Shown here: in pieces, positions 20,907-60,927 of the stretch | How positions within the stretch are numbered: position 1 is the stretch's first letter | Layout of the letters: every line of letters begins with the position of its first letter | NCBI GenBank assembly: GCA_024280835.1 | Contig: JAJRPJ010000018.1 | Coordinates: forward strand, 69,537 to 133,536 | DNA: 64,000 bases | DNA from: Candidatus Zixiibacteriota bacterium | Lineage (GTDB): Bacteria > Zixibacteria > MSB-5A5 > GN15 > JACZUZ01 | Reading direction: 5' to 3' | Position numbers and translations under genes: made by a program | The notes under the pieces: model-generated | The model's database searches: none | The model's input: only the letters and a program-made list of their open reading frames with translations | Told to the model about the DNA's origin: nothing

Positions 20907-21797
20907 TTACTTCATCAAGAGCATCTTACGAGTCTGGACAAAATCACCGGCTGTCAACTTATAGAAGTACATGCCGCTAGCAACTTGTGAACCATTGTCA
21001 CTGTCGCCATCCCAAGTAACCTCCCAGGCGCCAGCTTCACGAGCGCCGTTGACCAAGGTCTTGACCGTCTGGCCAAGCACATTATAGACCTCAAGTGTCA
21101 CAAGTGACTTACTCGCCAATGTGTAATTGATTTTTGTGCTCGGGTTGAATGGGTTCGGATAGTTTTGAGATAATTCGAACGAAGTTGGCAAAACACTGCC
21201 ATCGTCGATTCTAATATCGGTAAATGTAACAACCTTGGTTCCTAAGAATGTGGGAATTACACTTCCTCCTAAAGCGTCGCCAATAACAAAATCACCTGCA
21301 GGTGGGATAAACGTCGAATCAAGTGTCACTGTGCTTCCTTCCACCCATGAATTACCAGCGGCCAAGCTCAGGTATATTCTCGCCATCAATCGATTCGAAC
21401 CAGCTGGAACACCGCCAGTAAATGAGAACCCACCAACGATTACCGCGCCGACACTATCTGCGGTGGCATCTGACGTTGGAAGAGTAGTCCAGGCTCCACC
21501 GGGTGCGAAAACGCCTTGATAGACTAATGAATCGAATTGCCAGTCAGAGGTCGAGCGTGGTGGAGCGGCTGAGCTGGTAAAGTGACGATCCCAGGTAATG
21601 CCAAACGTGGATCCAGTCATGTTTGCACCGCTGTTTGTAAGAAAAACATTAACAACAAAACTCTGAATTCCAGACGGGTTTGGGGTAACATCAATGGTTA
21701 AGTAGACACTGTCCGCCAAGCTTGGCTGAGCTTTCACACTAGAGCCAAACCCCAGCGTCAAAACCAATACAGATACAATCATTAAAATACGTTTCAT
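20907..21797 (-). CDS. Secreted protein with a cohesin-like(?) beta-sandwich and a T9SS (Por) C-terminal sorting domain
   Basis: Signal peptide MKRILMIVSVLVLTLGFGSSVKA. Cohesin-like motif VYLTIDVTPNPSGIQSFVVNVFLTNSGANMTGSTFGITWD. CTD motif FELSQNYPNPFNPSTKINY...GMYFYKLTAGDFVQTRKMLLMK-stop. SD sequence AAGGAAGGA. Confidence 0.8.
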   Translation of the reverse strand: MKRILMIVSVLVLTLGFGSSVKAQPSLADSVYLTIDVTPNPSGIQSFVVNVFLTNSGANMTGSTFGITWDRHFTSSAAPPRSTSDWQFDSLVYQGVFAPGGAWTTLPTSDATADSVGAVIVGGFSFTGGVPAGSNRLMARIYLSLAAGNSWVEGSTVTLDSTFIPPAGDFVIGDALGGSVIPTFLGTKVVTFTDIRIDDGSVLPTSFELSQNYPNPFNPSTKINYTLASKSLVTLEVYNVLGQTVKTLVNGAREAGAWEVTWDGDSDNGSQVASGMYFYKLTAGDFVQTRKMLLMK

Positions 21798-22270
21798 TCG
21801 TTTGATCCTTCCTTTGTTCTTTGCTACAAAATAGACTTAATCATTATTTATATTTTCACAGTACTATAACAGAATCCGATGGATCCCACTCCGCCAAAAT
21901 TATTCGACGCAATATCAGGAAAGTACGCATCAATTATCGTTGAGTCAATACACCCTCCGCACTCATTTTGACAAATCGATATGGTGGATTGTCATTATCG
22001 ATCTTTCAATTTTCTTTATCAAACCGTAAGTATGGCGTGAGGACATGTAACATAGTGGCGACTATAGTTTCTTGGGGAACATCCGCCGCCAGAGACAATC
22101 GCTTAAGAATAGTCAACATGCGGTTGTTTCGTCAAGCAAAAAAGATTATTTGCCAAGATTTCTATGATTTCTTGTAGTTTTCCTAGCGATTTCGACTAAT
22201 TTCCACTTGCTGAATCGATCATGGCAATAGAACCAGTTTTCCTCATCAAACTTACCTGACTCATCAGAAT

Positions 22271-22315
22271 ACAACAAAAAGGAAGGCCGATTTGATTAAA
22301 TCAAATCGGCCTTCC
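22271..22315 (-). terminator. Rho-independent terminator after the BNR-dockerin gene
   Basis: On the minus strand: GGAAGGCCGATTTGA-TTTAA-TCAAATCGGCCTTCC (perfect 15-bp stem) followed by TTTTTGTTGT, 87 nt after the stop at 22402. Confidence 0.8.
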
Positions 22316-22401
22316 CACTGTAATGTATTACAGTCTAGCTCATAACATTGAGCGTCAACTGAATGGGTATCATTGCTACAATACCCTTTTTGTAATTCCT
22401 A

Positions 22402-25203
22402 CTAAATCCCTGCATTTCCACAAGCTGGCGCTGGGCCAGGAGGAGAGGCAAAAATACGCGCTATTCCAGCGGTTACATCAGCGATGTTAAAGGTGTTATC
22501 GCTGTTGAAATCGGCCTCATCCTGACAGGATGGAGCTGGTCCAGGCGGGGAAGCGAAGATACGAGCAATACCAGCGGTAACATCAGCGATGTTGAAAGTA
22601 TTGTCGTGGTTGAAATCACCAGGAGTAACACAACAGCCAAGAGTAAAGGCTGGAGTTACTGGTGGCTCAAGGGTCTTCGCAGTAGCGACACAAGCGTCAA
22701 AGGCAGCTTGATCACCAATACCTGTGACCATAATGAACCACATGTAGAGTGAATCATCGCTGTCGATTGTGTACGCGCCGCTATTAAGCACCATGTGCAA
22801 ATCGACTTCTGCGCTATCTGGAGCTGGGCTGGAGAACTTAGAGAAGCCACTAAGATCGTGCAGGGCTGTATCCAGTTTCGCATGATCCCAGTCGGCGCTA
22901 ACATATGTGGCATTGTCACGAGTGTACATACCATAGAAGCCAACACCCATTCCACCACTTCCACCAACTGTATAATCAGGCAAACCGTTGGTAGATGTTG
23001 GAATATAGATGGACGCCGCATAGCGCTCATCATTCGGCAAGATTGCTGTATTACCTGTATCCTGACCCCATTCTCCACCCTGTAAAGAGATGAGGAAGTT
23101 GCTGGCGTCTATGTTCGATGTGTTACGTGAACCTGAATCAGATGGTACATCCCAATCCCAGCCATAGGCACAAAAGACACTGTCAAGCGAAGAGGCTGAG
23201 TTGTTGTAATAACAAACACGAGCCAAAACGATTTTCCAGTTAGGATCATTGAAGAGTGATGCTTTCGGAGCAAAATAGTCAACTTGGAAGCAGAGAGTAG
23301 AATCCTGCGTCGTGAATTGACCTGAATTTCCGAGAGACCAGTCTACATTGGAAATGTCGTCGCTTGACGGAGATGTCAAAGGACGGAACTGGAAGCTATC
23401 AACAATGCTCGTGCTGAACATTGAAGAAACAACGATGTTGTTACCAGCTACTGGATACGAAACGATAGGTGAACCATCAAACAAGTAGTTGTCGGCGTTT
23501 CCAGTCGTATCAACTTCAGATGAAGCGGGAACATTCTGGAAGTCCATGGTCAAACCACCAGCTCCACCATTGTTCTGCAAAGCAGTACCACCAGTATTCG
23601 CAAATACTAGGCAGTTAGCCAAGGTATCAGTTTTGCGAAGCTCAAGATTAGCAATTGTATAGTCAATTGCGAGGTTGAGTGGTGAGTTGGCAAAGTTACC
23701 AGTCACTTCAATGTCAGCGTGAGCGTGCTGAACGGTCGTCTCAAGGAGAGCATTCAAAGTCAAAGATAGACCGATAAAGTTCGGGTCACCCTCAGAAATC
23801 GATCCAGAGGCGACGCCTGTTAGGGCAACGTTACCAGGAGGAGTCTGATTGGTGATGGTAATGGTGTAGGTCGCAGCAGCGTTACCAACATTAGTTAATG
23901 TCCAAGCAAGGGTTGAATCTGTGCCTGGAGGAGTAAATGCTGGATCTTCTACTGCTTGGCCAACAGGAATTGAGCTAGCCAAGAGCGGATTCGAAATTTT
24001 CTCAACACAACCAAAACGGAAGACTTTGAGTGAACTGTTTGTCCACGCACCTTCAGCTTGGATAGCTGAACCCGGATCGGAATCATTAACATACTGCACA
24101 AAGATATAGTTAGGACCAACGTAGCCACCGATGTTGCCACTCAAATCCGCAATAGCGTCGAAAGTGTCACCATTGAAATCGATATCAATACCATAGCGAA
24201 TCGCGCTATGCCACATATCTGAATCACAATCAGGATTAAGACCACCTGGAATTGTGTCACAGTTAGGTGTATATGTATCGGTTAGATTACGTTTCTGATC
24301 CCAGTTTAAACCAGCGTTATCAGAAACAGTGACGTAGATATCACCGTTCGATGCGCCTGCTGTTGCACCAGTTGAAGCTCTCTCAGCACAATCATCCTCA
24401 AGACCTGCCGGGACGTCGTTGAACTGAGTAAATGTGACATACAACTTGCTGTCACACTCTGAAATCTGAGGGTTGGTAGCGTTCAAGTTGAAGGCGCCAA
24501 CACCACACTCGGTCTGATCCCAAACAAAGTCATGGACAACACGAATCTTGTCACTGATAGGATCATAATGGAAGAGACGACCCGCAGCGCTGAATTGGCC
24601 ATCATAGCCTTCCCACTTTATCGCCTGCCAGACGACATGGAAGTTGTCAGCTTGATCATAAAGAACATCAAGCTTGGCTCCCGCAGAAAAGTCGAATACT
24701 GGGTGACCTTCATGAACCAATGAATCAGGACGCATGGTGACGTTTGTCAACTGTCCCCATGTAGCGCCCGCATCGGTTGACTCCATGTAATACAAGTCAT
24801 TGTCATTCTGACCAATGCCCCCATTAGGGCGCGAAATGACCCCACCAAATTGTGTTCCATCACCACGTCCAAAAGAAGCGGCGATAACTACTTTTTGTGA
24901 ACCAACTTTACGAGAGGCGGTCATTGCTGGGCTGAGGTTGAATCCACCAAAGCCAACCAATATCGGAGTCTCCCATACACCAGAAGCTGCAGTACTGTCT
25001 ATTGACGCCGCTCTAACCTTACGGACATAAAAAGCTTCGCCGTCTGCGTCAGTACGATCACTATGAATCAACAAATGTGTGACTTCAAGTCCGGTGCCAT
25101 CGTTTGTATAAGCAACACGAGGCCACAAAACCGCAGTCGCGTTACCTGCCAAAAGAGGAAGGGTGATTAGGGTATCGACAATCACACCAGTAAAGTCAGC
25201 CAA
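22402..25203 (-). CDS. BNR/Asp-box beta-propeller protein with a C-terminal twin dockerin (3' part of a frameshifted gene)
   Basis: Asp-boxes STDAGATW and SDNAGLNW. C-terminal GDFNHDNTFNIADVTAGIARIFASPPGPAPSC...DFNSDNTFNIADVTAGIARIFASPPGPAPAC. There is no signal peptide, the annotated start is only a TTG, and the frame stays open upstream of it. Confidence 0.75.
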   Translation of the reverse strand: MADFTGVIVDTLITLPLLAGNATAVLWPRVAYTNDGTGLEVTHLLIHSDRTDADGEAFYVRKVRAASIDSTAASGVWETPILVGFGGFNLSPAMTASRKVGSQKVVIAASFGRGDGTQFGGVISRPNGGIGQNDNDLYYMESTDAGATWGQLTNVTMRPDSLVHEGHPVFDFSAGAKLDVLYDQADNFHVVWQAIKWEGYDGQFSAAGRLFHYDPISDKIRVVHDFVWDQTECGVGAFNLNATNPQISECDSKLYVTFTQFNDVPAGLEDDCAERASTGATAGASNGDIYVTVSDNAGLNWDQKRNLTDTYTPNCDTIPGGLNPDCDSDMWHSAIRYGIDIDFNGDTFDAIADLSGNIGGYVGPNYIFVQYVNDSDPGSAIQAEGAWTNSSLKVFRFGCVEKISNPLLASSIPVGQAVEDPAFTPPGTDSTLAWTLTNVGNAAATYTITITNQTPPGNVALTGVASGSISEGDPNFIGLSLTLNALLETTVQHAHADIEVTGNFANSPLNLAIDYTIANLELRKTDTLANCLVFANTGGTALQNNGGAGGLTMDFQNVPASSEVDTTGNADNYLFDGSPIVSYPVAGNNIVVSSMFSTSIVDSFQFRPLTSPSSDDISNVDWSLGNSGQFTTQDSTLCFQVDYFAPKASLFNDPNWKIVLARVCYYNNSASSLDSVFCAYGWDWDVPSDSGSRNTSNIDASNFLISLQGGEWGQDTGNTAILPNDERYAASIYIPTSTNGLPDYTVGGSGGMGVGFYGMYTRDNATYVSADWDHAKLDTALHDLSGFSKFSSPAPDSAEVDLHMVLNSGAYTIDSDDSLYMWFIMVTGIGDQAAFDACVATAKTLEPPVTPAFTLGCCVTPGDFNHDNTFNIADVTAGIARIFASPPGPAPSCQDEADFNSDNTFNIADVTAGIARIFASPPGPAPACGNAGI

Positions 25204-25829
25204 TATTGGAGTGAAGTTATAGAAAGCCCAAGAATCGAACCTTCCGCCAGCTCCAAAGCTGGATCCCAGTGATGTGCATTGACCACTAGGCCAGTAGCGC
25301 CGCGGGAAGCAATAGATGTGTAACCAGAACGGTTCGGTGGAATAAGGTCACCACCAATATCAACACCACCTGTACCGTCAGTAAGGCCACCAGTGATTGG
25401 GTCATAACCCTCATACTTGACATTACGACCGCCTGTAGCGGAGTTGTTGTCCTGATTCATCCAAGTAAAGTTTAGACCATGATCTGGCTCACTAGTAGCA
25501 ATGAGCCTGTTCATCGAACCATTACGTTGGTAATCATAGAATGTACAGCCAATCGTCAAACCTCTAACCGCATCTTCGATTCCAGGCGTACAACCAAGAC
25601 TTGAAGAGCTAGAGGTTGCGCCGATGTACGAACCCTGAGTGCGGTCTGCGCCCATAAAGCCACCGGCTTGTACTTGACCGTCAGAAGGCAAGGCATACTT
25701 CACCGTATTAATTGCTTTCAAACGAATTTTTTCTTTTGTGTCGTTGTCGATGCCGTACGATGACTGCACTCCGACGAGGGCCACAAGCGATAACGTAAGG
25801 GAAATCTTAGTTAAGATATTCCTATTCAT
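25182..25829 (-). CDS. 5' part of the same gene: signal peptide plus the start of the propeller (probable start ATG 25829)
   Basis: MNRNILTKISLTLSLVALVGVQSSYG is preceded by a GGAG SD. The ORF ends 22 nt inside the next ORF in another frame. Confidence 0.6.
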   Translation of the reverse strand: MNRNILTKISLTLSLVALVGVQSSYGIDNDTKEKIRLKAINTVKYALPSDGQVQAGGFMGADRTQGSYIGATSSSSSLGCTPGIEDAVRGLTIGCTFYDYQRNGSMNRLIATSEPDHGLNFTWMNQDNNSATGGRNVKYEGYDPITGGLTDGTGGVDIGGDLIPPNRSGYTSIASRGATGLVVNAHHWDPALELAEGSILGLSITSLQYWLTLLV

Positions 25830-27110
25830 TAACTCGCTCCTTTCATTAAGATTTAAAAACGATCTACTTATTTCCTGAACTTTTTTCTTAATTCGACACA
25901 TTCTTTTATAACAAAAACGAAACCTATTACACGTACCTGTTGTATCATCTTTGTTTGAAGCTCTGACTTCACTGAGCTACTCGAGCGCTACGCCTGTCCG
26001 TACCGACAAACCGAATGTGATTGATAGCGATCGAAGACTTAGATTTCGTGTGCTTCCCTTTTCTCCTCCCTCCTACACTGCTAGCGTAGGGAAATCGGCC
26101 CTATAAGGGGGCCAGTCCAAAAACTCTTAGATAATTTACTGTTTCTTAATTTTTTTTCGATCAGTTGTTACTGTGCATTTACGAGAGGTAATTCTACACT
26201 TACAGCAAACTTAGATGGTATCTCACAATAGTTATAGAAAGTTTCTTCGGTTTGCAACATAATGAGCTCGCAACCCAAGCCCGCCTCTATTGTAAGGCGA
26301 ATAACAAATCCCACCATCTTTCTAAGTATTAACTCACGTTGAACTTGATGTCCATACACGAGCTATATTACAGATGTGCAAAAAAATAGGTAGTTTTGGC
26401 TGGTCTCAATGGTTAATCGGCCCAAAGAAACCCGCACTTAGAAAGTAGAACTCTAGGACGGCGATGTCAAGAAGTATTGAGGCAAACCTGGCGCAAAATC
26501 TGCGACAAACTGCTAAAAAGGCGCTTTTATCGCCCCTGATGAGATGGAGCAATAGACAATTGCCTGTTTTGAAACAAATAGTCCCGATTGCCGAGTTCAC
26601 CGTGCATATGAATATATGTAACCTCTAGGCAACAAAGACAAAAAATGCTTCCCCGCTACGCTGATGGGTTCAAATACAATGCTTGAACAGTTATCTATCT
26701 AATGCAATTAGCCAAAGACTTAGATGAAAATATCGATTCAACAGCATTAAACCTACAAGACTAATACTAATGTGCGTTGAAACTCACTGGCAGAATCAAA
26801 GCCCAGAGCCAATACTTTTCGTTGGCGCCTGAAGAAAGACAACGCCTTACGCATTAGCGCTTTAGTAGAAATCTCAATTCAATTCGTGGGCTAACTGCGC
26901 TATCACATAGAAGTAGATTGTAATATTCACAACTGGAGAGGCCGCTCGCGAAACAAATGACATTCAAGACAATGACATTCGAAGCAATGCCACTCACAAT
27001 CACTAATGGGCCGCACTACTCTGATAGACTCGTGGCTACATATAATCTAGCTTTTTTTGCAACAATATCACTAGTCGATAGACCACTAATCATGGCAATC
27101 GCTCTAACAC

Positions 27111-27153
27111 AAGAAAAAGCGTCGATCTCGTTATGAATCAACGAGATCGACGC
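27111..27153 (-). terminator. Rho-independent terminator closing the 28-kb operon
   Basis: On the minus strand: GCGTCGATCTCGTT-GATTCAT-AACGAGATCGACGC (perfect 14-bp stem) followed by TTTTTCTT, 75 nt after the stop at 27228. Confidence 0.85.
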
Positions 27154-27227
27154 TTTGTGAAGACTTTATAAGGGCTCTTTAGGTGACATCAGCCCCTCCT
27201 ACAATTGATCGGCTATTGCCTTCTAGA

Positions 27228-33647: not shown

Positions 33648-34729
33648 AAACTTCCTGTAAATGAACCGTTAGTATTAAATGTAGCTGAAGGGTTTATCGA
33701 TCCTGTTGTCCCGCATTCGGGCCATGAACCACCTGTAAATATCCATGAGACTAAATATGTCACATCGGCAATATTAACTTTGTTGTCGCCATTGGCATCG
33801 GCTTGATCACGACACTCAGGCGCAGAGCCGCCAGTGAAAATAAACGAAATTAGAAAAGTAATATCTGCAATATTGCTTTTTCCGTCCTTGTTTGCGTCTC
33901 CTGCAGTTTGACAGCATCCCGAACTCCCAAAAACAGAAATCTCGGAACGACTCGAATAAACGCCAGCCGCATTTTCTCCAATAATCAGATAATCAAATTC
34001 TGTGGAACCGTCGACTGCGGTATCAATATAGACACTATCAGCGATGCCCTGATCCGATAATGCGCCTGACGGGTTATCGATCCGGAAAAATGAACCAGCC
34101 GCTGTTTGGGCTCGTCTGTAAATGTGATATGTCAATGACGAGTCATAATCCCAGCGTAGATTTACTTGGCTGACGCTTACATTGGTGACGGTTAGTCCAG
34201 TTGGTTGTGACGGCCATAACACTGGAGTAAGTGTAATATTTTCTTGCTGAAAAGAATTATTCGGAATCATACCGCTGAGCTGCACACCTTCATTGCTTGT
34301 GGCGTGCAAAAAGTAATAAGCATATAGAGCCCCTGGTGATTCAGCGAGATAGTTTTGGAAATCATCGAACCAATTACCATTGTCATATCCTGCGCCGATT
34401 GAAATATCGGTACGAATTTCAGCGTCGGAGCCATTGATGAATCCGAAGAAAGAAACAGAGCCATTTACTGGAATAGATAAATCAGCTTTTTCTACATTGC
34501 CGAAAATAGATCCCTGAGCCAAAGCCCAAGACGGCACAACAGAAACAAGTAGCAAAGCGCAAATGCAATATTTTGCGCATAAACTCGCGCAATATGCACA
34601 TTTATTACTTAAGAGATGGTTGCTCAATAACTGATTGCCTTCAAGCTGACCGTTTGAACCAAACACAGCAATAGCCCTTGCCTGAGCAAGGACTTGAATT
34701 TCACTTATCTGTTGGTTTCTCTGTCTCAT
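33644..34729 (-). CDS. Secreted head-domain + dockerin protein (paralog of the 2139-aa N-terminus without the repeat array)
   Basis: Signal peptide CALLLVSVVPSWALA, then GSIFGNVEKADLSIPVNG...NWFDDFQNYL...NNSFQQENI, colinear with the 2139-aa head. Dockerin CCQTAGDANKDGKSNIADITFLISFIFTGGSAPEC..DANGDNKVNIADVTYLVSWIFTGGSWPEC. The stop overlaps the next ATG (ATGA). The true start is uncertain because the N-terminal extension is odd. Confidence 0.8.
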   Translation of the reverse strand: MRQRNQQISEIQVLAQARAIAVFGSNGQLEGNQLLSNHLLSNKCAYCASLCAKYCICALLLVSVVPSWALAQGSIFGNVEKADLSIPVNGSVSFFGFINGSDAEIRTDISIGAGYDNGNWFDDFQNYLAESPGALYAYYFLHATSNEGVQLSGMIPNNSFQQENITLTPVLWPSQPTGLTVTNVSVSQVNLRWDYDSSLTYHIYRRAQTAAGSFFRIDNPSGALSDQGIADSVYIDTAVDGSTEFDYLIIGENAAGVYSSRSEISVFGSSGCCQTAGDANKDGKSNIADITFLISFIFTGGSAPECRDQADANGDNKVNIADVTYLVSWIFTGGSWPECGTTGSINPSATFNTNGSFTGSL

Positions 34730-34774
34730 CTATCTTCTGTTATTTGCCTCTAATTGAGTCAATTCAGCTACCTG

Positions 34775-50377: not shown

Positions 50378-50417
50378 ATGCTTGATATATCTCCCTGATG
50401 CCTCTCGACTATTGAAA

Positions 50418-53129: not shown

Positions 53130-53177
53130 CAGTTTAACGGCTTACGTATTTGAGTGTCAATCTTCATCATATTCATA

Positions 53178-55280
53178 TTACTTCAAAAGCGTCATTTTTC
53201 TTGATTGTGCATATCCGTTGGCAGTCAAACGATAAAAGTACATTCCGCTAGCAACTGTCGAACCCTGTTCATCAGCTCCATCCCAGCGTGCGACATAGTC
53301 GCCAGACTCAAATGTTCCTTGAGCCAATGTCCGGACAGTTCTACCGAGGATATCATAAATGACCAATTTGACATTGGCCTGATTCGACAACGAATAACGT
53401 ATCTCAGTTGTCGGGTTAAACGGATTAGGATAGTTTTGCTCAAGCTCAAATGCTGTTGGCAAAACCACTGAGCCAGACTTCACCAAATTCGCTTGAAGGG
53501 TAGCGCCTTGTGCGCTCGCTAACTCTACAGCGACAAGCTCTAGCTTTTCAAAATCAACGCTGCTATTCGTCGAAACGAACAGAGCCTCGGAAAGACTCGC
53601 CGAGTTTTCATTTGAAGATCGATCGTAAGTAACGCTCTTATAGATCAAGGCCCTAAGAGTATCACCACTCTGATGTAATTTGACCTCATAACCATTCGGC
53701 AGACCGCCTTCATCAAACTTCAGTGACCGAAGAACACCATCAGCTTGAGCGACAAACGTCAACAATGCGCCGCCAACAGTGGTAGCGCTCGTTTCATACT
53801 CATTATTAGAGCTGAAACGGACAACGGCTTGATTTTCTTGACGTTCAAAAAGCACATTAATTTCGGTTGAGTATCCAGGTGCAATTCTTGGATTTGCAGC
53901 GCCATCGCCAAGAACTATCGAGAGCAATGTCACAAGATCAGCAATGGATGCCACAATACCGTCAGAGTTGACATCCGAATTGGCAAATTGCTCCGCGTTG
54001 AATCCAGACCTCACTGGATCAATAAAGTAATTTGTGAATCGAAGAGCATCGGCGACCTCAAAAGGCACGCCATTGAGATTGATGTCGCCACGTGTAATAT
54101 CTGACTGATTGACTATTTTAACACCACCGCTAGTGAACACTATGGAGTCTGAGACAATTACGCTGCCCGCCGTATCTATTAGTGTATTTGAGGCTGGTGG
54201 AGCAAAAGGACCAAAGCCAAAAATTACTGGCAGAAATAGACCCGCCAAATTGTTTTCAGAAGACACAAAGAAATTGATGGTGAATAAAATCCCGTCGCCT
54301 GGAGGGATAACTCCCGCTCCATTTGGACTTGATGTATTTGCGATGCCTACAACTTTCAAATCACCAGGGGACGGAGATCCCAACTGAAAGGTTAGTGACT
54401 CGAAATCTGAGGTCCTGGCAGTCTCATTGAAAATAGATATGAATGCCATCACACTTGGGTCATAATGCAATTCAAACTCGAACCCAGAAATCGACTTACG
54501 GTTTGTTAGTAAAACTGGGATTGAAACGACTTCACCTGGAAACGCTGTGTCAACTGCAATAGTAACCGAAAACGGAGCCCCAATCGAAACTACTACTGTA
54601 GCGCTAGCGCTAACAGAAAGCCCCCACTGGTCTGTGGCCGTTAGCACAATTGTATTCGAACCACTATCTGCTTGCTCTGGCGCCCACTTCAAATCTGCTG
54701 GGGCAGGACCGTCTGCGTTGCGCAACAAAAGTCCAGTTGGAGCTGCAGCCATTGACCACGTTATCTTGTCTTGATCAGGATCAAAAACTGTCGGCTGGAT
54801 GTTCACTGTATCCCCAACCTCGACAAAAACAGAATCAACTAATGTAATAATTGGAGCGCGGTTCCTGTTTTGAACGTGGACTACCAGAGCTTCTGAACTT
54901 TGCGATGTTCCGTCGGAGGCGACAAACATCACCGTAAAAGGTGAACCAGCTGAAGAAAGAGGCCCAAGATATTCGGAGGTCCATGAGAAATTCGCTGTGC
55001 CATCACCGTTATCGCTAAAGATCGAACCAATCGGACGCTCAATAGTTGCTAATGACAGAGGATCGCCATCGGCGTCCGCAACACGGACAGTCACTGAGAC
55101 TGTCTGGCCTTCGCTGAGATATACATCCCCCAACGGTTCAATTACTGGCGGACTGGCAGCGCTTACCTGATTTGTAACTAGTAACGAACCCACAGACAAG
55201 AATACCAAAACAACCGCAAGCATAGCCGCAAACCTAGTCAGCCCAGAAAACTTCATCTCACAGATATGAGATGAGGTCAA
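53178..55280 (-). CDS. Scaffoldin-like protein: 2 He_PIG repeats, cohesin, dockerin, X module, T9SS CTD (probable start ATG 55256)
   Basis: Signal peptide MKFSGLTRFAAMLAVVLVFLSVGSLLVTNQVSA. Cohesin FSVTIAVDTAFPGEVVSIPVLLTNRKSISGFEFELHYDPSVMAFISI...GDGILFTINFFV...FTSGGVKIV. Dockerin GDINLNGVPFEVADALRFTNYFI...SDVNSDGIVASIADLVTLLSIVLG. CTD FELEQNYPNPFNPTTEIRY...GMYFYRLTANGYAQSRKMTLLK-stop. Confidence 0.85.
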   Translation of the reverse strand: MTSSHICEMKFSGLTRFAAMLAVVLVFLSVGSLLVTNQVSAASPPVIEPLGDVYLSEGQTVSVTVRVADADGDPLSLATIERPIGSIFSDNGDGTANFSWTSEYLGPLSSAGSPFTVMFVASDGTSQSSEALVVHVQNRNRAPIITLVDSVFVEVGDTVNIQPTVFDPDQDKITWSMAAAPTGLLLRNADGPAPADLKWAPEQADSGSNTIVLTATDQWGLSVSASATVVVSIGAPFSVTIAVDTAFPGEVVSIPVLLTNRKSISGFEFELHYDPSVMAFISIFNETARTSDFESLTFQLGSPSPGDLKVVGIANTSSPNGAGVIPPGDGILFTINFFVSSENNLAGLFLPVIFGFGPFAPPASNTLIDTAGSVIVSDSIVFTSGGVKIVNQSDITRGDINLNGVPFEVADALRFTNYFIDPVRSGFNAEQFANSDVNSDGIVASIADLVTLLSIVLGDGAANPRIAPGYSTEINVLFERQENQAVVRFSSNNEYETSATTVGGALLTFVAQADGVLRSLKFDEGGLPNGYEVKLHQSGDTLRALIYKSVTYDRSSNENSASLSEALFVSTNSSVDFEKLELVAVELASAQGATLQANLVKSGSVVLPTAFELEQNYPNPFNPTTEIRYSLSNQANVKLVIYDILGRTVRTLAQGTFESGDYVARWDGADEQGSTVASGMYFYRLTANGYAQSRKMTLLK

Positions 55281-56390
55281 TCCAGTCAGCTGTCCAGTTG
55301 GACGCAGATTGTTTGATTTGTTCGATAGGAGTTGTTCGATTCGAGTTTTCAGCGCAATCGCTCTTTTCTATTCTTTCGTTACTACTCTTGCTTTGTAAGC
55401 AGTAGCTGCGTAATCAATAACATTGTAATCACTTGGCGATAACTATCAGGGTCAGTGCAGCTTCGCCAGCTTCTATTCTCTTTGCTATAATCTCTATTTT
55501 GGACTCCTGCCAGAGAGAACCTTCGTACGACAAACGCTCTGGTTAGCAATAATCAAATCCAGAGCGACTTACGGCAAATCCTCCAATTCCGTTTGAGCAA
55601 TAAGCAGACCAATCTGCCATACTATCGAAGGTGGAAGAGTATCCTGTTCAATTGTCGCACAACCATTTCGGATCATGGGTAGGTTCAAAACCCGAAATAC
55701 GATTATAAACGGAAAATCCTTGTCCAATAATCGCTTAAGTCAGAAAAACGGCCTTTCCCACTGATAAACGATGGCCGATAATGGCCAAACAACAGGTTGA
55801 AGCTCGTTTCCTCGTTAGCTGAGTCCTTCTGACGACATTAGGTATACGTGAGGCGGTAAGGTATGAAACGCAAGTAATACAGATTATTACACTGTCATAC
55901 GCAAGACACGCAAACAATTGCGCGTTTAGCTAACGTCTATGCTGCATTGCTTTACTCCATTTGCAATCTTCGACGTTGCTTCGGCGCCTAAACTTCCAGT
56001 CTCGGTTACGATACACATCAATATCACCCTCAGGTGGTGGCCTATTCCCTACTTATTGTGACACTAGAACCAGGATTCCTGATAGGATCTTGCTGACGGA
56101 TGTGCGAGGGAAATCGTATCCAACTGACCTGCGAATAATATACTACTTATCCACATTTTCGTCAAAGGTTTTCGCGCCTCTTTCAGGACTAAATTGACTC
56201 ATTTATCCATTTGACACTGTAGGTCTTAACTATATTTCACCAACCTCTTTTTCACAGACAATGTCAGTCGACATTTGTCAATAAACCAGCAGGTTCGCTC
56301 TTAGCTATTTCTTAGCTATTAAGGAGTTAATCTTCAGATGGGGGAAAACGACGGTAAGGCAGTGATACTATGAATCATCGTGAGACGCTT

Positions 56391-56434
56391 AAAATAAAAG
56401 TCCCAACCGAGGGAGGAAATCCTCCCTCGGACGG
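56391..56434 (-). terminator. Rho-independent terminator after the 893-aa gene
   Basis: On the minus strand: TCCCGTCCGAGGGAGG-ATTT-CCTCCCTCGGTTGGGA (10-bp perfect core plus outer pairs) followed by CTTTTATTTT, 20 nt after the stop at 56454. Confidence 0.75.
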
Positions 56435-56453
56435 GAAATAAAGCAAGAAATGA

Positions 56454-59135
56454 CTATTTTACAAGAGCCAATTTCCGTGTTGCTGTGTACTTGCCACCAG
56501 CAGCAGAAACCTTATAGAAATAGATTCCTGTTGACTGACTAGCAAGATCAACATCAATACTTACCAAACCGGCTTCATGCTCACCAGTGATATCACGTAC
56601 GAGCTGACCAGCGACGTTATAAATACGAACTGAGTATTTAGCGGCTTCTGGGAGATCGAAAGTGATCTTGGTGTTAGGATTGAATGGGTTCGGGTAATTC
56701 TGGTAAACGGCAAAACTGGTAGGAATGACGACGTCGAGACCAGGTGACAAAGCGACACCATTGTAGTCTGCGGCTTCGACAGAAACCAATGTACCTTCGG
56801 AAGAGACGACATTACCAGCGGCAATGACTTCTGAACCAACGTTGAATACCAGTGCGTGGGTGTTGCCATCGACAACACCAACTTCGATGTCCATATTGGT
56901 GGCAAGAAGAGTTACATCAACTTCACCCTCAAATACGAACAACGCAGCGCCCATCTCAACGCTTGAAGAAACAACACCACTCTTAGAAGTGATGGAGATA
57001 GCTTCGGCGTTATGAGCGAGTTTCGGTAAAGGAAGAGCATCACCGACGATGACACGGATCAAATACACCAAGTCAGCGACAGTTAACGGAATTCCATCAC
57101 CATTAACTTCAGATGCGGCAATCGAACCCTCAATGTGGGTACCGAAAGCTGAGAGACCAGAAACAAAATAGTTGGTCAACATTGTCGCATCCGCGATCTC
57201 GTTTGAGAGACCGTTCAAGTTGATATCACCGCGTGCATCAATTTCTTCCGCACAGATAATTCTGATACCACCGTTTTTGTAATCAACAAAACGGATCGGA
57301 GCGCCTTTAGGCGTAGCAACATCACAATCATCCGGTGCGCCTGTGAAGGTCGGGAATGACTGATCAGCGCCAGTGATATTCGAACGGAAACCACTGACGA
57401 CGTTATTCATGTCTGTACCGATGTAGTCAAAGACGTTACGGCTGACATAAAGGGTGTCACCACCAGATGACGACAGTGAGTTATCACCGCAGTCAATCCA
57501 GCACCAGCGAATCGCTGCAAACTGACATTCGAGATTACGATCGTTTGAGACCAAGAATGTCAAACAAGCAAAGTCATCACCAACGACCAACAAATTGTTG
57601 TTCGGGTGAGCCATGCCATCATTCTGCTCAGCAAGACCGATTACACGAAGCTTACCTGAAGGACAACCACCTGTGCAGTTACCATTCGGGCCGAAGCGAT
57701 AGGTAAAGTACTCCCACGCGTAATCCGCGAAAATATTACCTTCCGTCGCGCCAACAAATGAAAGCGCGCTGTTATCATAAGAAATCAAGAAATCAAAACC
57801 ACCAAGTTCATTCGAACCGCCGTCATAGTTAAGGCAAACCTCAACCTGATGGCCCTGCAAAGAACCACCCAATGGGTCGGTCTTGTCAGTCTGGTCAATG
57901 CTGACACAGAAAGGCTCGGTGAACAATACAGTGATTGTCATGGTGCACTCGACTGTTTCAATACCATCTGTAACTGAGAGGGTAATGTCATAGTCAGTAT
58001 CAGCGCCAGCAGCGTCGGAATTGTCAGCAGCAAATGTGACAGCGCCTGTTGTAGGATCAACAGACACGGTACCAACTGGAACTGGTGCAACACTTACGAG
58101 TGAGTAAACCAAAGCATCACAAGCGTCAGCATCGGAACCGTTAGCGGCCGGAGAAGTACCAGAGTTGCCTTTGGCAACTGCGATATTCGGTGGGCAAACG
58201 AGAGCCGGAGTGCTATTTGTGACTTCAACATTAACAACACAGTCAGCGTTCGGGCCATCTGGCTCGGCGCCATTGACTGTAATTGTGATAGAACCATTCT
58301 CACCAGCGCCTGGAACGTATGAAACGTTACCAGAACCGTCAACAGAAACAGTACCTGTACCGGTAGTTGTCGCTGAATAGGTAATTGGCTGATTTTCTGG
58401 ATCTGGATCGGTGAGCGTAATCGAGAAATTCAAAGCATCACAATGATTGGTGCTTTCTGATGTTGTATTGCCAGCATCACAAACCGGATCTTGATCCGGA
58501 ATTACAAAAGCAGTGACACAAAGAGCGTTGTCGCGTGAACCGCCAACACTAAGATCACCACCACCACCTGACCAGCCAGTTGCGGCGGCAGGTGACATCA
58601 ACCACTCACCACTTGGTGGGAAGAAAGCGGAGTCAATACAAAGAATACCGCCGTCAATACCAGGAAGAGTGAATGAGAATTTAAGACCATCGGATAAGGC
58701 AATTGGGCCATAACCGGTTCCAGCCGCTCCAGAGGATACACCACCGGAGAGCCATGTGCTTGGCAATGAGCCACTGAAAGCATCAGCGCCCAATGTCAAT
58801 TTAGCGCCACCAAAATCCCATGTGGCATTGTTACCCCAGACACCAACGCCTATAGCAGGCGGTGTTACCCATGTGATGTTAGTAAGTGAGCCATCTGGGC
58901 TATAGATAATAAAGCCCATCGTGGCGCCAGTTACATTAACATCAGACTCAAACTGCACTGTGTACTCATAGGTACTGGCATGTCCGACTTGGAAATCAAG
59001 TCCGTTTCCAGATATATCTGGGAAAGTTGGCCCGTTTGTTATTGACACCGCAGCGCCAGTCTGAGCCAAAGCATTTGACCCAAGAGCAAATAACATACAA
59101 GAAGCCAATACAAGAGTAAGTAATTTACGACTCAT
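56454..59135 (-). CDS. Scaffoldin-like protein: N-terminal domain, Ig/cadherin-like modules, cohesin-like, dockerin, X module, T9SS CTD
   Basis: AGGAG SD. Signal peptide MSRKLLTLVLASCMLFALGSNALA. Cohesin-like HQVEVCLNYDGGSNELGGFDFLISYDNSALSFVGATEG...FVDYKNGGIRII. Dockerin GDINLNGLSNEIADATMLTNYFVSG...SEVNGDGIPLTVADLVYLIRVIVG. CTD FAVYQNYPNPFNPNTKITF...GIYFYKVSAAGGKYTATRKLALVK-stop. Confidence 0.85.
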   Translation of the reverse strand: MSRKLLTLVLASCMLFALGSNALAQTGAAVSITNGPTFPDISGNGLDFQVGHASTYEYTVQFESDVNVTGATMGFIIYSPDGSLTNITWVTPPAIGVGVWGNNATWDFGGAKLTLGADAFSGSLPSTWLSGGVSSGAAGTGYGPIALSDGLKFSFTLPGIDGGILCIDSAFFPPSGEWLMSPAAATGWSGGGGDLSVGGSRDNALCVTAFVIPDQDPVCDAGNTTSESTNHCDALNFSITLTDPDPENQPITYSATTTGTGTVSVDGSGNVSYVPGAGENGSITITVNGAEPDGPNADCVVNVEVTNSTPALVCPPNIAVAKGNSGTSPAANGSDADACDALVYSLVSVAPVPVGTVSVDPTTGAVTFAADNSDAAGADTDYDITLSVTDGIETVECTMTITVLFTEPFCVSIDQTDKTDPLGGSLQGHQVEVCLNYDGGSNELGGFDFLISYDNSALSFVGATEGNIFADYAWEYFTYRFGPNGNCTGGCPSGKLRVIGLAEQNDGMAHPNNNLLVVGDDFACLTFLVSNDRNLECQFAAIRWCWIDCGDNSLSSSGGDTLYVSRNVFDYIGTDMNNVVSGFRSNITGADQSFPTFTGAPDDCDVATPKGAPIRFVDYKNGGIRIICAEEIDARGDINLNGLSNEIADATMLTNYFVSGLSAFGTHIEGSIAASEVNGDGIPLTVADLVYLIRVIVGDALPLPKLAHNAEAISITSKSGVVSSSVEMGAALFVFEGEVDVTLLATNMDIEVGVVDGNTHALVFNVGSEVIAAGNVVSSEGTLVSVEAADYNGVALSPGLDVVIPTSFAVYQNYPNPFNPNTKITFDLPEAAKYSVRIYNVAGQLVRDITGEHEAGLVSIDVDLASQSTGIYFYKVSAAGGKYTATRKLALVK

Positions 59136-59721
59136 CTCGTACTCCTACTTTTAAGTGTATGGATTATTTGACTATTTGATTTCATTCGCAAGAATGCACG
59201 CATGCATACTGACGAATCAGCCATGTATGAGAAGACAGTGAGAGCCACAAACCGCCCTTGCCCAACATGATTGGTGATTTCAAATTGTCGCATAATCATT
59301 ATTAAGTTTCTCTTGAGTGCGTATTACAGTTCACAAATAAATCAAAAGATATAATCTCATGTTTTATTTGCAATTGTTTGTCTTCTGCAGATTTGTAAGA
59401 AATCTTTCAGAAGGAAATCTCGTGTTTGATAATACAGAGAGCCACCGATTATCAAACAGTAAGACAAAACCTACCTCTTCTTAAGCGTTTCCTCCTCTTT
59501 TTTCAAACGTGTTAGCGATTGAATGTCGGAAATGAAGCGAGAGGAAAACTCCCTGCAGTTGAATAGAAGACATACTATCCATGGAAAACATCCCACAAAT
59601 AGAAGCCATATTCTTCCGCTGACGTACACCCCGACGTTTCTTATTCATTTTTCTTTTTCTTTTCGCTTAAATCGTAATGCTTAACTATCACTTTGTTGTT
59701 TGCTTTTAGACAGTCACCAAG

Positions 59722-60927
59722 CTATTGGAGGCAACATCCATTTGGCCCAGACCCACCTGTAAATATCCAAGCAATCATATATGTGATGTCTGCAATGTTG
59801 AATTTGCAATCACCATTGGGATCCGCCCCCAGATTGCTTTCAACTCCACCACAAGTTGGAGCAGCCCCGCCAGTAAATACCCGAGCAATCATAAACGTTA
59901 CATCCGCGATATTTTTCTTATTGTCATCATTGACATCACCGCAAATACACTGAGGTTGTGCAAGAATCGTCAACGAACCGTCTGACAAAAACACTTTCGT
60001 AGTATCCAAATGACCGACAAGAATAGTGTCAATAGAGGTTGAATCAAACGGTGGGGTCGGTACGCGAATATAACTCAAGCAATTAAATGGAGAGAAAGGA
60101 TTCCATTGTTCGCAAAACCAGAAGGCGGTATCCTCAACTGAATCGGTCACAATACCAATTGAGTTTCCCAGCTCATCAGAGAATGAGAAATTATTCAAAG
60201 TAGAGGAAACAATCCGCATTGTCACTGTACGGTCTGTCGCTGTATCATCTAGGATAACATCAGCTAACAGCTTGATAAGCACACCGTCCGTCTGCGGTCC
60301 AAAACCAGGAGTTTGTGGCAAAGCCGCCTGATTTGCCAAGGCTGATATCTTAATATCAAAACCCTGACCTCCAAGTGAACGAGCGTCAACAAACTCCCAA
60401 CCCGACATTAGCGTCCCAGAGGTATCGAAACTACCGAGAATAATTTCCAAATCCGCAACATGCAGAAAATCATAGGGATTAGTTGTAAACCAATCGTATC
60501 CCAAAGTAGTGTCGGCAACTTCTATAGAGTCCAAACAATTTGGTGGCACAGCGCCAATCGGATTCTGACATGACCAATAACGAATAGTATCGAAAACTTG
60601 AATCGAGTCAGTGCAGGCCGGAAAAGCCCCCGCCAAACAGAGCCAGAGAGTGGTATCGGGAATAGTGTCTATATTGGTTTTGAAAACGATCACGTCAGGT
60701 CTGTCAAGCTGTATCCAGAGCTCAACACCTGCGACCGTATCAGAGAAGTTGTCGACAAAGATGGATATGACAGCGTTTTGGGTGTTCGGCAATGCAACAG
60801 TGTCAATCACATCCACAACTAAAGCTGGCTGCGCCTCAACTCGGGTGACTCCCAAAGTGAACGTTAGCCCTAAGGTCGCCAATAAGGCGCAAAACCCTGC
60901 GGATAGTGAGTGGTTCATTCGTCTCAT
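59722..60927 (-). CDS. Secreted adaptor-like protein: cohesin-like module + C-terminal Cys-bracketed dockerin
   Basis: AGGAGA SD. Signal peptide ...LGLTFTLGVTRVEA. Cohesin-like VVDVIDTVALPNTQNAVISIFVDNFSDTVAGVELWIQLDRPDVIVF...GVLIKLLADV...VFLSDGSLTIL. Dockerin CICGDVNDDNKKNIADVTFMIARVFTGGAAPTC...DPNGDCKFNIADITYMIAWIFTGGSGPNGCC. Confidence 0.75.
   Translation of the reverse strand: MRRMNHSLSAGFCALLATLGLTFTLGVTRVEAQPALVVDVIDTVALPNTQNAVISIFVDNFSDTVAGVELWIQLDRPDVIVFKTNIDTIPDTTLWLCLAGAFPACTDSIQVFDTIRYWSCQNPIGAVPPNCLDSIEVADTTLGYDWFTTNPYDFLHVADLEIILGSFDTSGTLMSGWEFVDARSLGGQGFDIKISALANQAALPQTPGFGPQTDGVLIKLLADVILDDTATDRTVTMRIVSSTLNNFSFSDELGNSIGIVTDSVEDTAFWFCEQWNPFSPFNCLSYIRVPTPPFDSTSIDTILVGHLDTTKVFLSDGSLTILAQPQCICGDVNDDNKKNIADVTFMIARVFTGGAAPTCGGVESNLGADPNGDCKFNIADITYMIAWIFTGGSGPNGCCLQ

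Follow-up and report, generated by a model that had tools for sequence, protein, structure and literature searches.

Organization of the locus

Between positions 20,907 and 60,927 of the 64,000-nt stretch of DNA analysed here (the window), ten open reading frames lie on the minus strand, at the positions and with the lengths that a first-pass annotation had given them. Starting from the first gene of the conserved cluster, these are p401 (59722..60927), p893 (56454..59135), p700 (53178..55280), p903 (50418..53129), p5200 (34775..50377), p361 (33644..34729), p2139 (27228..33647), p239 with p933 (22402..25901) and p296 (20907..21797). All proteins begin with a Sec signal peptide, in which inspection of the N-termini shows a hydrophobic core and then an A-x-A-like site. 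Coordinates below are positions in the window, and every feature is on the minus strand.

Reading frames p239 and p933 are parts of one gene, interrupted by a frameshift near 25185-25347, where both frames are open; unsplit orthologs of 1037-1046 aa occur on four metagenome contigs (L088, L089, L092 and L094). Its large domain matches no family model. Two Asp-box-like motifs in this domain and a weak BNR_4 match (E 0.0064) in one of five family members are the basis for the BNR/Asp-box propeller noted on first reading.

The intergenic gaps along p700-p903-p5200-p361-p2139 measure 48, 40, 45 and -4 nt and, together with a conserved promoter and a terminator, count in favour of an operon. A consensus scan placed the promoter, of sigma-70 type (TTGACG-17-TATATT, 56137..56165), about 860 nt upstream of the p700 start. 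It sits in a near-invariant block that aligns three ways with loci L002 and L003 (99 nt at 94% identity to L002), and no Rfam family was found for this conserved leader upstream of p700. Presumably transcription starts here and runs, behind a long conserved leader, from p700 through p903, p5200 and p361 to p2139. Directly 3' of the p893 stop codon, a hairpin with a T-run (56391..56430) is likely an intrinsic terminator; its stem is retained through compensatory changes in L002 and L003. The same scan found a second sigma-70-type promoter (TTGACA-17-TATATT, 61490..61518) about 560 nt upstream of p401, within a stretch conserved with these two loci.

The window comes from a member of the uncultured phylum Zixibacteria, throughout which the order of the five core genes is conserved. 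When the same arrangement was sought in related genomes, as the first-pass annotation had advised, p401>p893>p700>p903>giant repeat protein recurred in essentially every locus reaching far enough, among 80 species-level genome loci, and on one metagenome contig. In nearly all related loci the gene next after the p903 ortholog encodes a giant repeat protein, and in L066 a protein with a p361-type N-terminal domain comes after the giant. The module joining a cohesin to a dockerin (Coh-Doc) is encoded in 287 species-level genomes, almost all of them Zixibacteria.

Cohesin modules

Three proteins carrying a sorting domain, p893, p700 and p903, have a common core of cohesin, dockerin, a second cohesin-like domain (Coh') and a C-terminal sorting domain (CTD). 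The clearest cohesin is that of p700, already singled out on first reading. This protein comprises two He_PIG/Big_9 repeats (54585-55154), the cohesin (54096-54584), a class-A dockerin (53895-54095), Coh' (53460-53894) and a type IX secretion system (T9SS) type A CTD (53181-53459). Pfam Cohesin (PF00963) scores 38.3 bits on it, against a cut-off of 24.1 bits. An AF2 model of the four domains (pLDDT 87.2, pTM 0.75) superposes on type I cohesins in Foldseek (TMt 0.80-0.85, E 1e-9 to 1e-11); among its structural matches are 1g1k, 5nrm, 6kgc, 1aoh, the Archaeoglobus fulgidus cohesin 2xdh and the C. perfringens GH84 cohesin-like 2jh2. The comparison with the cohesin fold, a nine-stranded jelly-roll beta-sandwich, applies to p700, whose model also shows three helices at model residues 180-228 in the dockerin part. 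Profile matches in the PDB are cohesins and the dockerin 3ul4_B.

For the other modules, ortholog profiles were aligned with that of the p700 cohesin in hhalign. In p893, an unknown N-domain (58491-59063) and an Ig/cadherin-like region (57921-58490) precede a cohesin with Cys-rich inserts (57240-57920), a class-A dockerin (57036-57239), Coh' (56730-57035) and a T9SS type A CTD (56457-56729). Pfam Cohesin stays below the cut-off here (18.2 bits), and the ortholog profile matches that of p700 at 99.7%. The pre-anchor domains of p893 and p700 match each other at 99.4%, and that of p700 matches the C-terminal cohesin profile of p903 at 97.9%. The shorter p401 consists of a cohesin with a Cys-rich insertion (59953-60831) and a class-B dockerin (59725-59952), and Pfam/NCBIfam scans found no sorting domain on it. 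The profile of its orthologs reaches 97.8% (E 1e-12) against that of the p700 cohesin, and the short RBG-1 ortholog gives an end-to-end alignment with the Coh-Doc profile (6.7e-12); Pfam Cohesin was undetected in 15 of 15 p401 orthologs.

Three cohesin-like modules are found in p903: an N-terminal one with a large insertion (52260-52991), a middle one (51336-51773) separated from it by a Cys-rich linker and He_PIG (51774-52259), and a C-terminal Coh' (50715-51143) between a class-C dockerin (51144-51335) and a T9SS type A CTD (50421-50714). The middle and C-terminal modules match the p700 cohesin profile at 93% and 95%, and the N-terminal module matches Coh-Doc profile A2 at 77%. All ten PDB profile matches of the N-terminal module are cohesins (best E 0.004), as are those of the other modules. 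Pfam Cohesin was detected in 16 of 21 p903 orthologs (best 4.7e-12) and undetected in the window's own p903.

Finally, p296 combines a weakly cohesin-like N-domain (21186-21728) with a T9SS type A CTD (20910-21185). The N-domain resembles an additional cohesin-like domain that p700 orthologs from other genomes have at their N-terminus (E 1e-4 to 2e-3) in a region overlapping Coh-Doc profile matches, a weak and transitive link to cohesins; direct comparison of the domain with cohesins was not significant. The cohesin-like modules listed on first reading hold for p700 and, through ortholog profiles, for p893, p401 and p903 with its three copies, and p296 is linked weakly.

Dockerins and their possible partners

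Dockerins were recognized as two repeats of about 22 residues, each with an EF-hand-like Ca loop (D-x-N/D-x-D/N with D at position 12) and a helix. There are seven, internal in p700, p893 and p903 and C-terminal in p361, p401, p933 and p2139, exactly where they had first been placed. Canonical 12-residue loops are paired, at a spacing of 33-38 residues, in p933, p2139, p361, p401 and p903, and the dockerins of p700 and p893 have a variant pair of 13-residue loops (one extra residue each). Pfam Dockerin_1 (PF00404, cut-off 22.9 bits) exceeds its cut-off only in p2139 (40.2 bits) and p361 (30.9 bits), falls below it in p401 (18.9 bits) and p903 (16.9 bits), and was not reported by the scan for p933, p700 and p893; among orthologs it is found in 12 of 21 p903-type and 4 of 4 p933-type proteins. 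A profile of p401-ortholog dockerins from other genomes, with the window excluded, matches p361 (6e-28), p401 (2e-24), p2139 (3e-24), p933 (7e-18), p903 (9e-10), p893 (1e-5) and p700 (2.5e-4). The p933 family profile also matches the solved dockerin 4dh2_B (5.8e-6).

The seven fall into three classes. Class B is that of p401, p361 (33710-33916), p2139 (27231-27431) and p239/p933 (22405-22641), none of which has a sorting domain; the anchored proteins carry the other two, class A in p893 and p700 and class C in p903. Cohesins are present on all sorting-domain proteins (weakly so in p296), whereas p361, p2139 and p239/p933 have a signal peptide and a C-terminal dockerin only, and this split fits assembly in trans.

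In p401, p893, p700 and p903, the dockerin always comes directly after a cohesin, so that an adaptor role, self-assembly or binding in cis is as likely for each of them as the recruitment of cargo. Were binding in cis, these would be independent T9SS surface adhesins whose Coh-Doc-Coh' unit is an intramolecular cassette: the dockerin, clasped by neighbouring cohesins, would stiffen or orient the anchor-proximal stalk, and dockerin-only proteins would use theirs for Ca-dependent folding or another partner, with no assembly in trans. Besides the fixed domain order, this account draws on the pTM of the p700 model, which hints that the dockerin may pack against its own neighbours and would then favour cis binding. 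It also draws on a mirror-tree test in which positive residual correlation appeared within proteins only (Doc893-Coh893 0.48, Doc700-Coh700 0.28), and on the internal dockerins being the slowest-evolving modules, with a mean distance of 0.38-0.68 against 0.94-1.42 for cohesins. However, p903 has three cohesin-like modules for one dockerin and therefore free sites; p361, p2139 and p933 have a dockerin with neither a cohesin nor an anchor of their own; and the 109 further proteins ending in a class-B dockerin that are described below would bear a widespread tag without a receptor, which is hard to explain. We consider this account unlikely.

Because each subunit has both partners, the dockerin of one molecule might also bind the cohesin of the next, giving chains or a lattice on the cell comparable to an S-layer or sheath; the anchored proteins would form its base and the free p401 subunit would extend it. 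Such a self-polymerising coat would suit a cluster of four Coh-Doc proteins, one of them without an anchor, that is conserved phylum-wide and has strong consensus promoters, and it would suit the similar numbers of the two partners (about 9 cohesin-like modules, 7 dockerins). Yet no inter-protein cohesin-dockerin pair stood out in the mirror-tree test, and many cargo-like dockerin proteins would be left unexplained; we hold it to be very unlikely.

Type IX sorting domains and export

Type A sorting domains had been proposed for p296, p903, p700 and p893, and all four pass the TIGR04183 cut-off of 23 bits at their extreme C-terminus (p893 45.7, p296 45.5, p700 41.2 and p903 26.2 bits). Por_Secre_tail (PF18962) and FlgD_ig from Pfam concur on the same proteins, each of which has a K-x-x-L-x-K motif and ends with the domain at its last residues. 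No T9SS core gene (sprA, porV, porU, gldK/L/M/N) lies within the 64-kb window, and no paper in the literature searched links Zixibacteria to T9SS. For p401, p5200, p361, p2139 and p933, Pfam/NCBIfam scans matched no known outer-membrane export signal; since the host is diderm, every subunit that lacks a sorting domain still has an outer membrane to cross.

Giant repeat proteins and the range of dockerin cargo

The locus encodes 73 He_PIG-type repeats (52 + 18 + 2 + 1), in line with the roughly 70 cadherin-like/He_PIG repeats first estimated. Most belong to p5200, in which 52 He_PIG/Big_9/cadherin-like repeats (35648-50302) are followed by a C-terminal FN3 domain and two alpha/beta repeats of about 90 aa (34778-35647). 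Pfam/NCBIfam scans and a Ca-loop search found neither a dockerin nor a sorting domain on p5200, and its C-terminus matched no Pfam or NCBIfam family, including type B CTD TIGR04131 / CHU_C. AF2 models this C-terminal unit with a pLDDT of 97.2 and a pTM of 0.93; only its FN3 part has a PDB match. A SprB-type CTD was considered and rejected, as the model consists of FN3 and two alpha/beta domains and not of an Ig-like CTD. The unit is carried by 750 representative clusters.

An N-terminal domain common to p361 and p2139 is followed by FN3 in both (33944-34516 and 32952-33521), and p2139 continues with TIG and 18 He_PIG repeats (27438-32912; Pfam He_PIG, Big_9 and TIG) before its dockerin. In protein P0155 the same N-terminal domain is joined to the p5200 C-terminal unit, which implies that the C-terminal position is taken now by this unit, now by the dockerin.

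The class-B dockerin serves a broad range of cargo. We counted 109 ORFs with a C-terminal class-B dockerin on 80 metagenome contigs of unassigned taxonomic origin, and 27 of 63 scanned proteins pass Dockerin_1 at E<=1e-5; only some of the entries are clear p401 or p933 orthologs. The dockerin ends proteins with M1, M43, M28 and C1 peptidases, and also GDSL lipases, Laminin_G_3, FG-GAP and SBBP propellers, and He_PIG. No GH family occurs among the 25 Pfam families listed of the 50 matched.

These results bear on the model of the first-pass annotation, a cellulosome-like machine for adhesins only, whose T9SS-anchored scaffoldins display dockerin-tagged giant adhesins. Its components are sound: cohesins, dockerins and T9SS type A domains do occur in one locus, a giant repeat protein belongs to the conserved operon, p2139 is a 2139-aa repeat protein with a terminal dockerin, and within the window no glycoside hydrolase, CBM, protease or other enzyme is attached to a dockerin, as had been noted. 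Its scope and its recruitment step fare worse, as the giant that is both largest and conserved, p5200 with its orthologs, lacks a dockerin, p2139 is the sole tagged giant, and elsewhere the class-B dockerin is found on peptidases, lipases and lectin-like modules. The class-B dockerin is not adhesin-specific, which makes an adhesin-displaying analogue too narrow a description, and we judge that model quite unlikely.

Comparison with known systems

With clostridial cellulosomes (C. thermocellum CipA/OlpB/SdbA; A. cellulolyticus ScaA-ScaB-ScaC) the zixibacterial locus shares a type I-like cohesin fold, duplicated Ca-loop dockerins, multi-cohesin proteins and clustered scaffoldin genes, and, with their adaptor scaffoldins, cohesin and dockerin on one protein. 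It differs from them in its diderm host, in relying for its anchor on a T9SS type A domain rather than on SLH or sortase, in a cohesin-dockerin-cohesin' unit fixed beside the anchor, in an operon that includes a giant He_PIG protein without dockerin, and in the 13-residue loops of the p700 and p893 dockerins. It also lacks a CBM and a dockerin-borne glycoside hydrolase; with no GH or CBM in the window on any dockerin or cohesin protein, it is not a cellulosome in the strict sense.

A similar scaffold has already been proposed in silico for Cloacimonadota, as a cellulosome-like complex of 'Ca. Stygibacter': one 3755-aa scaffoldin has tandem cohesins, CBM2/CBM3 and a T9SS CTD, the cargo consists of enzymes, and signal-peptide proteins with C-terminal dockerins include peptidases (PMC8542988). 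The first-pass view of the zixibacterial locus as a candidate novel system must be revised, as a T9SS-anchored cohesin scaffoldin with dockerin cargo was put forward there earlier (PMC8542988). Both systems, known from sequence, belong to FCB-group diderms and combine a T9SS-CTD cohesin protein with dockerin-ended signal-peptide proteins; the zixibacterial one differs by its four smaller Coh-Doc proteins, phylum-conserved operon, giant repeat proteins and absence of CBM.

Non-cellulosomal cohesin and dockerin modules (Peer et al. 2009, as cited in PMC8542988) likewise occur outside plant cell-wall degradation and can share one protein. Such examples, with the Archaeoglobus fulgidus cohesin 2xdh and C. 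perfringens GH84 cohesin-like 2jh2/2w1n among the modules for comparison, are isolated modules or toxin-complex pairs, whereas here a conserved multi-gene cluster is tied to T9SS anchoring. T9SS-anchored proteins (P. gingivalis CTD proteins; F. johnsoniae SprB) resemble ours in having a Sec signal and a TIGR04183 domain, and T9SS giant adhesins resemble our very large, repetitive, predicted surface proteins. Unlike SprB, the zixibacterial giants have neither a type A nor a type B sorting domain, and their attachment would be indirect. For F. succinogenes CTD cellulases, cleavage and covalent outer-membrane attachment have been proposed (PMC6851124); by analogy, the same may be expected of the zixibacterial sorting-domain proteins.

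A proposed surface assembly

We now propose, with a probability of roughly 0.55, that the locus encodes a platform of cohesins, anchored through T9SS, for a wide secretome of dockerin-tagged proteins, the zixibacterial version of cohesin-dockerin surface assembly. Proteins p893, p700, p903 and probably p296 would enter the periplasm by Sec and, to judge from their domain family, be handled by T9SS. Once anchored, p893, p700 and p903 would hold a cohesin, a dockerin, the divergent Coh' and the sorting domain beside the anchor, with p903 adding two cohesins. Ca-dependent binding in trans would link their cohesins to dockerins, among them the class-B dockerins of p401, p361, p2139 and p239/p933, with p401 acting as a cohesin-dockerin adaptor. 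Further partners, suggested by the metagenome contigs, may be the class-B dockerins of peptidases, lipases, lectin-like modules and propellers encoded elsewhere. As a fibril-like partner in the conserved operon, p5200 would attach other than by a dockerin, probably through its C-terminal unit of FN3 and two alpha/beta domains. The locus is probably a general docking platform and not an adhesin-only device. If so, its net function would be to build a cell-bound multi-protein layer in which long repeat fibrils stand together with tagged cargo.

Architecture of the locus

The ten minus-strand open reading frames (ORFs) of 20907-60927 have exactly the coordinates and lengths assigned to them in the first-pass annotation; their products are named here by length in amino acids. 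All were described as signal-peptide proteins and, on inspection, every N-terminus indeed shows a hydrophobic stretch resembling a signal peptide and, after it, an A-x-A-type site. The genes of p700, p903, p5200, p361 and p2139 are tightly packed, with intergenic gaps of 48, 40, 45 and -4 nt. Those of p401 and p893 lie upstream of these five, while p239/p933 and p296 are placed downstream, past non-coding gaps of 0.6-1.3 kb.

Three proteins, p893, p700 and p903, are anchored: each has a variable N-terminal part followed by a cohesin, a dockerin, a cohesin-like domain (Coh') and a sorting domain (CTD); in p903 the N-terminal part contributes two more cohesins before this core. p401 consists of a cohesin and a dockerin only, without anchor. 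p361, p2139 and p933 all end with a dockerin of one class (class B). In p361 (33944-34516) and p2139 (32952-33521) it is preceded by a common N-terminal domain, AQGSIFG.V...DLS.P.NG...FFGF.NG...GAGYD.GNWFDDFQNYL, with no family model, and by an FN3 domain.

p239 and p933 are one gene with a frameshift, both frames being open over 25185-25347. Orthologs on metagenome contigs L088, L089, L092 and L094 are one-piece proteins of 1037-1046 aa with the dockerin likewise at the end; the window copy is therefore frameshifted, and represents either a pseudogene or an assembly error.

Sorting domains, cohesins and dockerins

T9SS type A CTDs were found on all four proteins proposed to have them: at the extreme C-terminus, TIGR04183 (cut-off 23 bits) matches p296, p893, p700 and p903 with 45.5, 45.7, 41.2 and 26.2 bits, respectively, and Pfam agrees.

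Of the cohesins claimed in p700, p893, p401, p903 and possibly p296, that of p700 is recognized directly by Pfam (38.3 bits, cut-off 24.1). An AlphaFold2 model of its residues 230-700, built on 131 homologs, has a pLDDT of 87.2 and a pTM of 0.75; the first domain of the model superposes on solved type I cohesins with TM-scores of 0.80-0.85 (E 1e-9 to 1e-11), a non-cellulosomal Archaeoglobus cohesin being among the structural matches. The remaining cohesin-like segments of the window are too divergent for Pfam, and profiles were built from their orthologs in other genomes. Compared with the p700 cohesin profile, these gave 99.7% for p893, 97.8% for p401, 95% for the C-terminal and 93% for the middle module of p903; the N-terminal module of p903 matched a Coh-Doc profile (A2) at 77%. 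Moreover, 16 of 21 p903 orthologs match Pfam Cohesin directly, and the 260-aa p401 ortholog of Zixibacteria RBG-1 matches a cohesin-dockerin profile end to end (6.7e-12). Homology also links the Coh' domains of p700 and p893 with each other (99.4%) and with the last cohesin-like module of p903 (97.9% for the p700 domain).

Only for p296 does the assignment stay weak. In single-sequence profile comparison, neither its N-terminal domain nor that of p903 significantly matches the cohesin profile; the ortholog profile settled the assignment for p903, and the p296 domain weakly resembles (E 1e-4 to 2e-3) an extra N-terminal cohesin-like domain of most p700 orthologs. The latter are 800-900 aa long (L012-L015, L020, L035, L042, L066 and other related loci). 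In the window lineage, which includes L002-L005, p700 is devoid of this domain and p296 (20907-21797) carries a similar one as a stand-alone module with its own sorting domain, which looks, from the sequences, like domain fission.

Paired canonical calcium loops are present, as proposed, in the dockerins of p933, p2139, p361, p401 and p903. Those of p700 and p893 belong to a variant whose loops are longer by one residue (RGDINLNG..E.AD...FTNYF / SDVN.DGI..S.ADLV.L). Profiles made without the window sequences divide the seven dockerins into three classes: A (p700, p893), B (p401, p361, p2139, p933) and C (p903); the dockerin family profiles match solved dockerins. Altogether, the modules of the locus are members of the cohesin, type I dockerin and T9SS type A CTD families.

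The estimate of about 70 cadherin-like/He_PIG repeats held as well: a repeat profile counts 52 in p5200, 18 in p2139, two in p700 and one in p903, or 73, which Pfam calls He_PIG, Big_9 or Cadherin_5. Of the BNR propeller there remain two Asp-box-like motifs and one weak BNR_4 match in one ortholog (E 0.0064).

The giant protein and its C-terminal unit

p5200 possesses neither a dockerin nor a sorting domain. Its residues 4911-5200 (34778-35647) form an FN3 domain and two alpha/beta repeats of about 90 aa, modelled by AlphaFold2 as one rigid compact body (pLDDT 97.2, pTM 0.93). No Pfam or NCBIfam family matches this unit, and a PDB search returned matches for the FN3 part only. A T1SS adhesin is ruled out by the N-terminal Sec signal peptide, and a SprB-like protein by the lack of a type B CTD.

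In all, 750 representative protein clusters contain the FN3 + 2x alpha/beta unit. Among the best 150 of these, it is C-terminal in 55, and in 63 it is followed, 120-150 residues downstream, by a type A sorting domain, in proteins with GH2, GH88, metallophosphatase, FG-GAP/ASPIC and other domains; the Coh' profiles do not match the spacer domain of the proteins that carry the unit. One representative protein (P0155) joins the N-terminal domain of p361/p2139 to a C-terminal unit of the p5200 type, which shows this unit and the class-B dockerin to be interchangeable as C-termini. In the related locus L066, a giant of 1911 aa ends in the same unit, and the p361-like gene that follows also starts with the p361/p2139 N-terminal domain.

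Conservation of the cluster

The cohesin-dockerin module occurs in 287 genomes, nearly all labelled Zixibacteria, in a scan of one genome per species; they include RBG-1 and four closed genomes. Over all 287, identity reaches 67% in the closest. No window protein appears in the public protein collection, where an exact-sequence look-up of a flanking protein gave no record; for the p700 module, the best homolog has 42% identity. When the ORFs of 80 retrieved loci were scanned with profiles of the window modules, the order p401-like > p893-like > p700-like > p903-like > giant repeat protein was found in essentially every locus reaching far enough, and one JGI metagenome contig has an identical order. 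This makes the core cluster a trait of the phylum and no strain-specific island. In public annotation its products are 'hypothetical' or 'T9SS type A sorting domain-containing', their cohesins and dockerins rarely being detected by precomputed Pfam.

The full cluster is also found, in the same order, in many third-party MAGs labelled 'uncultured Ignavibacteriales/Ignavibacteria' (L002, L011, L012, L023, L033 and others); these labels are probably taxonomically wrong.

Leaders and flanking genes

The 1.17-kb spacer between p893 and p700 (55281-56453, minus strand) is conserved at the DNA level with loci L002 and L003. It holds a likely terminator after p893 (56391-56430, minus), a hairpin and T-run with compensatory changes, then a near-invariant block with a sigma-70-type promoter, TTGACG-17-TATATT (56137-56165, minus), about 860 nt upstream of p700. 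The long leader thus defined has several conserved blocks. Rfam matched no family in the whole window at gathering score, nor in the leader at E<=1, so this leader may be an undescribed cis-regulatory RNA. The region upstream of p401 (60928-61898) is a second long leader, with a promoter-like TTGACA-17-TATATT (61490-61518, minus) about 560 nt from the gene, in a stretch conserved with L002 and L003. The window has no tRNA genes.

Divergent from p401 is a gene for an HDOD-domain protein (61899-62873, plus), kept there in 11 related loci (40-69% identity); 6 kb past the other end of the locus lies a GAF-GGDEF diguanylate cyclase gene (13145-14713, plus). The two may place the cluster under second-messenger control. 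The flank at 14770-20660 encodes a NagZ-like GH3, AnmK, a SpoIID-domain protein and a GH35/GH42-like beta-galactosidase: it is a peptidoglycan-recycling and glycan set with no evidence of a tie to the cluster. An OmpA-family protein with TSP_3 repeats is encoded at 9777-11267.

A general-purpose dockerin tag

Within the window no dockerin is attached to an enzyme, as first noticed; an adhesin-specific system is made unlikely by metagenome contigs, where class-B dockerins also tag peptidases and lipases. A census of such contigs with a narrow class-B alignment confirmed 312 places; 80 loci were kept, and on them 109 ORFs carry a dockerin. Pfam Dockerin_1 is found at E<=1e-5 in 27 of the 63 longest. 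The dockerin is nearly always at the extreme C-terminus, and such genes often come several in tandem. The enzymes include M1, M43, M28 and C1 peptidases, GDSL lipases and a beta-lactamase-fold protein; other proteins carry FG-GAP and SBBP propellers, TSP_3, Laminin_G_3 or He_PIG domains. Given this variety, the tag is general-purpose. With two orthologs of p401 and several of p933 among the 109, at least some of these ORFs come from Zixibacteria.

In RBG-1 (locus L006, 1-2244), the p401 ortholog is preceded, at a distance of about 3 kb, by three small tandem ORFs, each with a class-B dockerin at its C-terminus. Comparable arrays of dockerin genes occur on metagenome contigs L100, L111 and L138.

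Proposed assembly

Best supported, on the strength of protein architecture, is a T9SS-anchored cohesin platform that would bind dockerin-tagged proteins in trans, with p401 as a putative adaptor and the giant repeat protein presumably held through its own C-terminal unit. This is suggested by the placement of cohesins on anchored proteins versus tags on unanchored ones, by the surplus of cohesins in p903, by the one dockerin class common to the unanchored proteins and by the many further proteins that bear this tag. The observation behind the first-pass annotation is confirmed, and its interpretation, scaffoldins recruiting dockerin-tagged giant adhesins, is supported in part.

Three observations weaken this reading, being equally compatible with dockerins that bind their own neighbours in cis or with head-to-tail polymerisation. 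In a mirror-tree comparison of four dockerins with seven cohesin-like modules over 23 genomes, residual co-variation after background removal was intra-protein only, which assigns no pairing; conservation is highest in the internal dockerins (mean distance 0.38-0.68, versus 0.94-1.42 for cohesins); and the p700 model, with its pTM of 0.75, is compact.

The proteins p401, p5200, p361, p2139 and p933 have Sec signals, without a recognised outer-membrane export signal. No T9SS genes were found within the window, nor any T9SS components among unannotated flanking ORFs in an NCBIfam scan. We consider it unlikely that Coh-Doc-Coh' is a self-assembly and export device, in which the subunits without a sorting domain, dockerin-tagged ones as well as the giant fibril protein, would attach in the periplasm to cohesins of proteins that have one, cross the T9SS translocon together with them and then daisy-chain through cohesin-dockerin contacts into an ordered surface coat characteristic of Zixibacteria. 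If true, such piggy-back secretion would be a new outer-membrane export route for cargo without a signal, and the coat a new kind of cell-surface polymer.

Relation to known systems and significance

A true cellulosome is ruled out: unlike a strict cellulosome, the locus has no GH and no CBM, and its anchor differs. The closest precedent in print is the 'cellulosome-like' complex proposed in silico for 'Ca. Stygibacter' (Cloacimonadota), with a 3755-aa cohesin/CBM scaffoldin ending in a T9SS C-terminal domain and dockerins on a chitinase, an amylase and peptidases (PMC8542988). Beyond Bacteroidetes, a case for T9SS anchoring has been made in Fibrobacter (PMC6851124). In the literature searched, we found no relevant paper linking Zixibacteria to cohesins, dockerins, a cellulosome, gliding or T9SS, and none on Latescibacteria with cohesin and dockerin. 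The concept is not new; what is new here is the conserved multi-gene cluster, the Coh-Doc-Coh'-CTD cassette, the link with giant repeat proteins without dockerin, and the three dockerin classes.

More than 15 years after non-cellulosomal cohesins and dockerins became known, hardly any is known to have an assigned function. With about nine cohesin-like modules and seven dockerins of three classes, the cluster provides a defined set that is conserved across the phylum. Every module is amenable to recombinant expression and pairwise testing, so no culturing is needed and the function of non-cellulosomal cohesin-dockerin pairs becomes directly testable. It also brings to light two widespread domains absent from family libraries: the FN3 + 2x alpha/beta unit and the N-terminal domain common to p361 and p2139. 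For T9SS biology, it raises the question of how partners without a sorting domain reach the surface. Finally, for Zixibacteria, an uncultured phylum of sediment and groundwater, the cluster suggests how the cell surface is built and how peptidases, lipases and binding proteins are tethered to it, which bears on particle attachment and organic-matter turnover.
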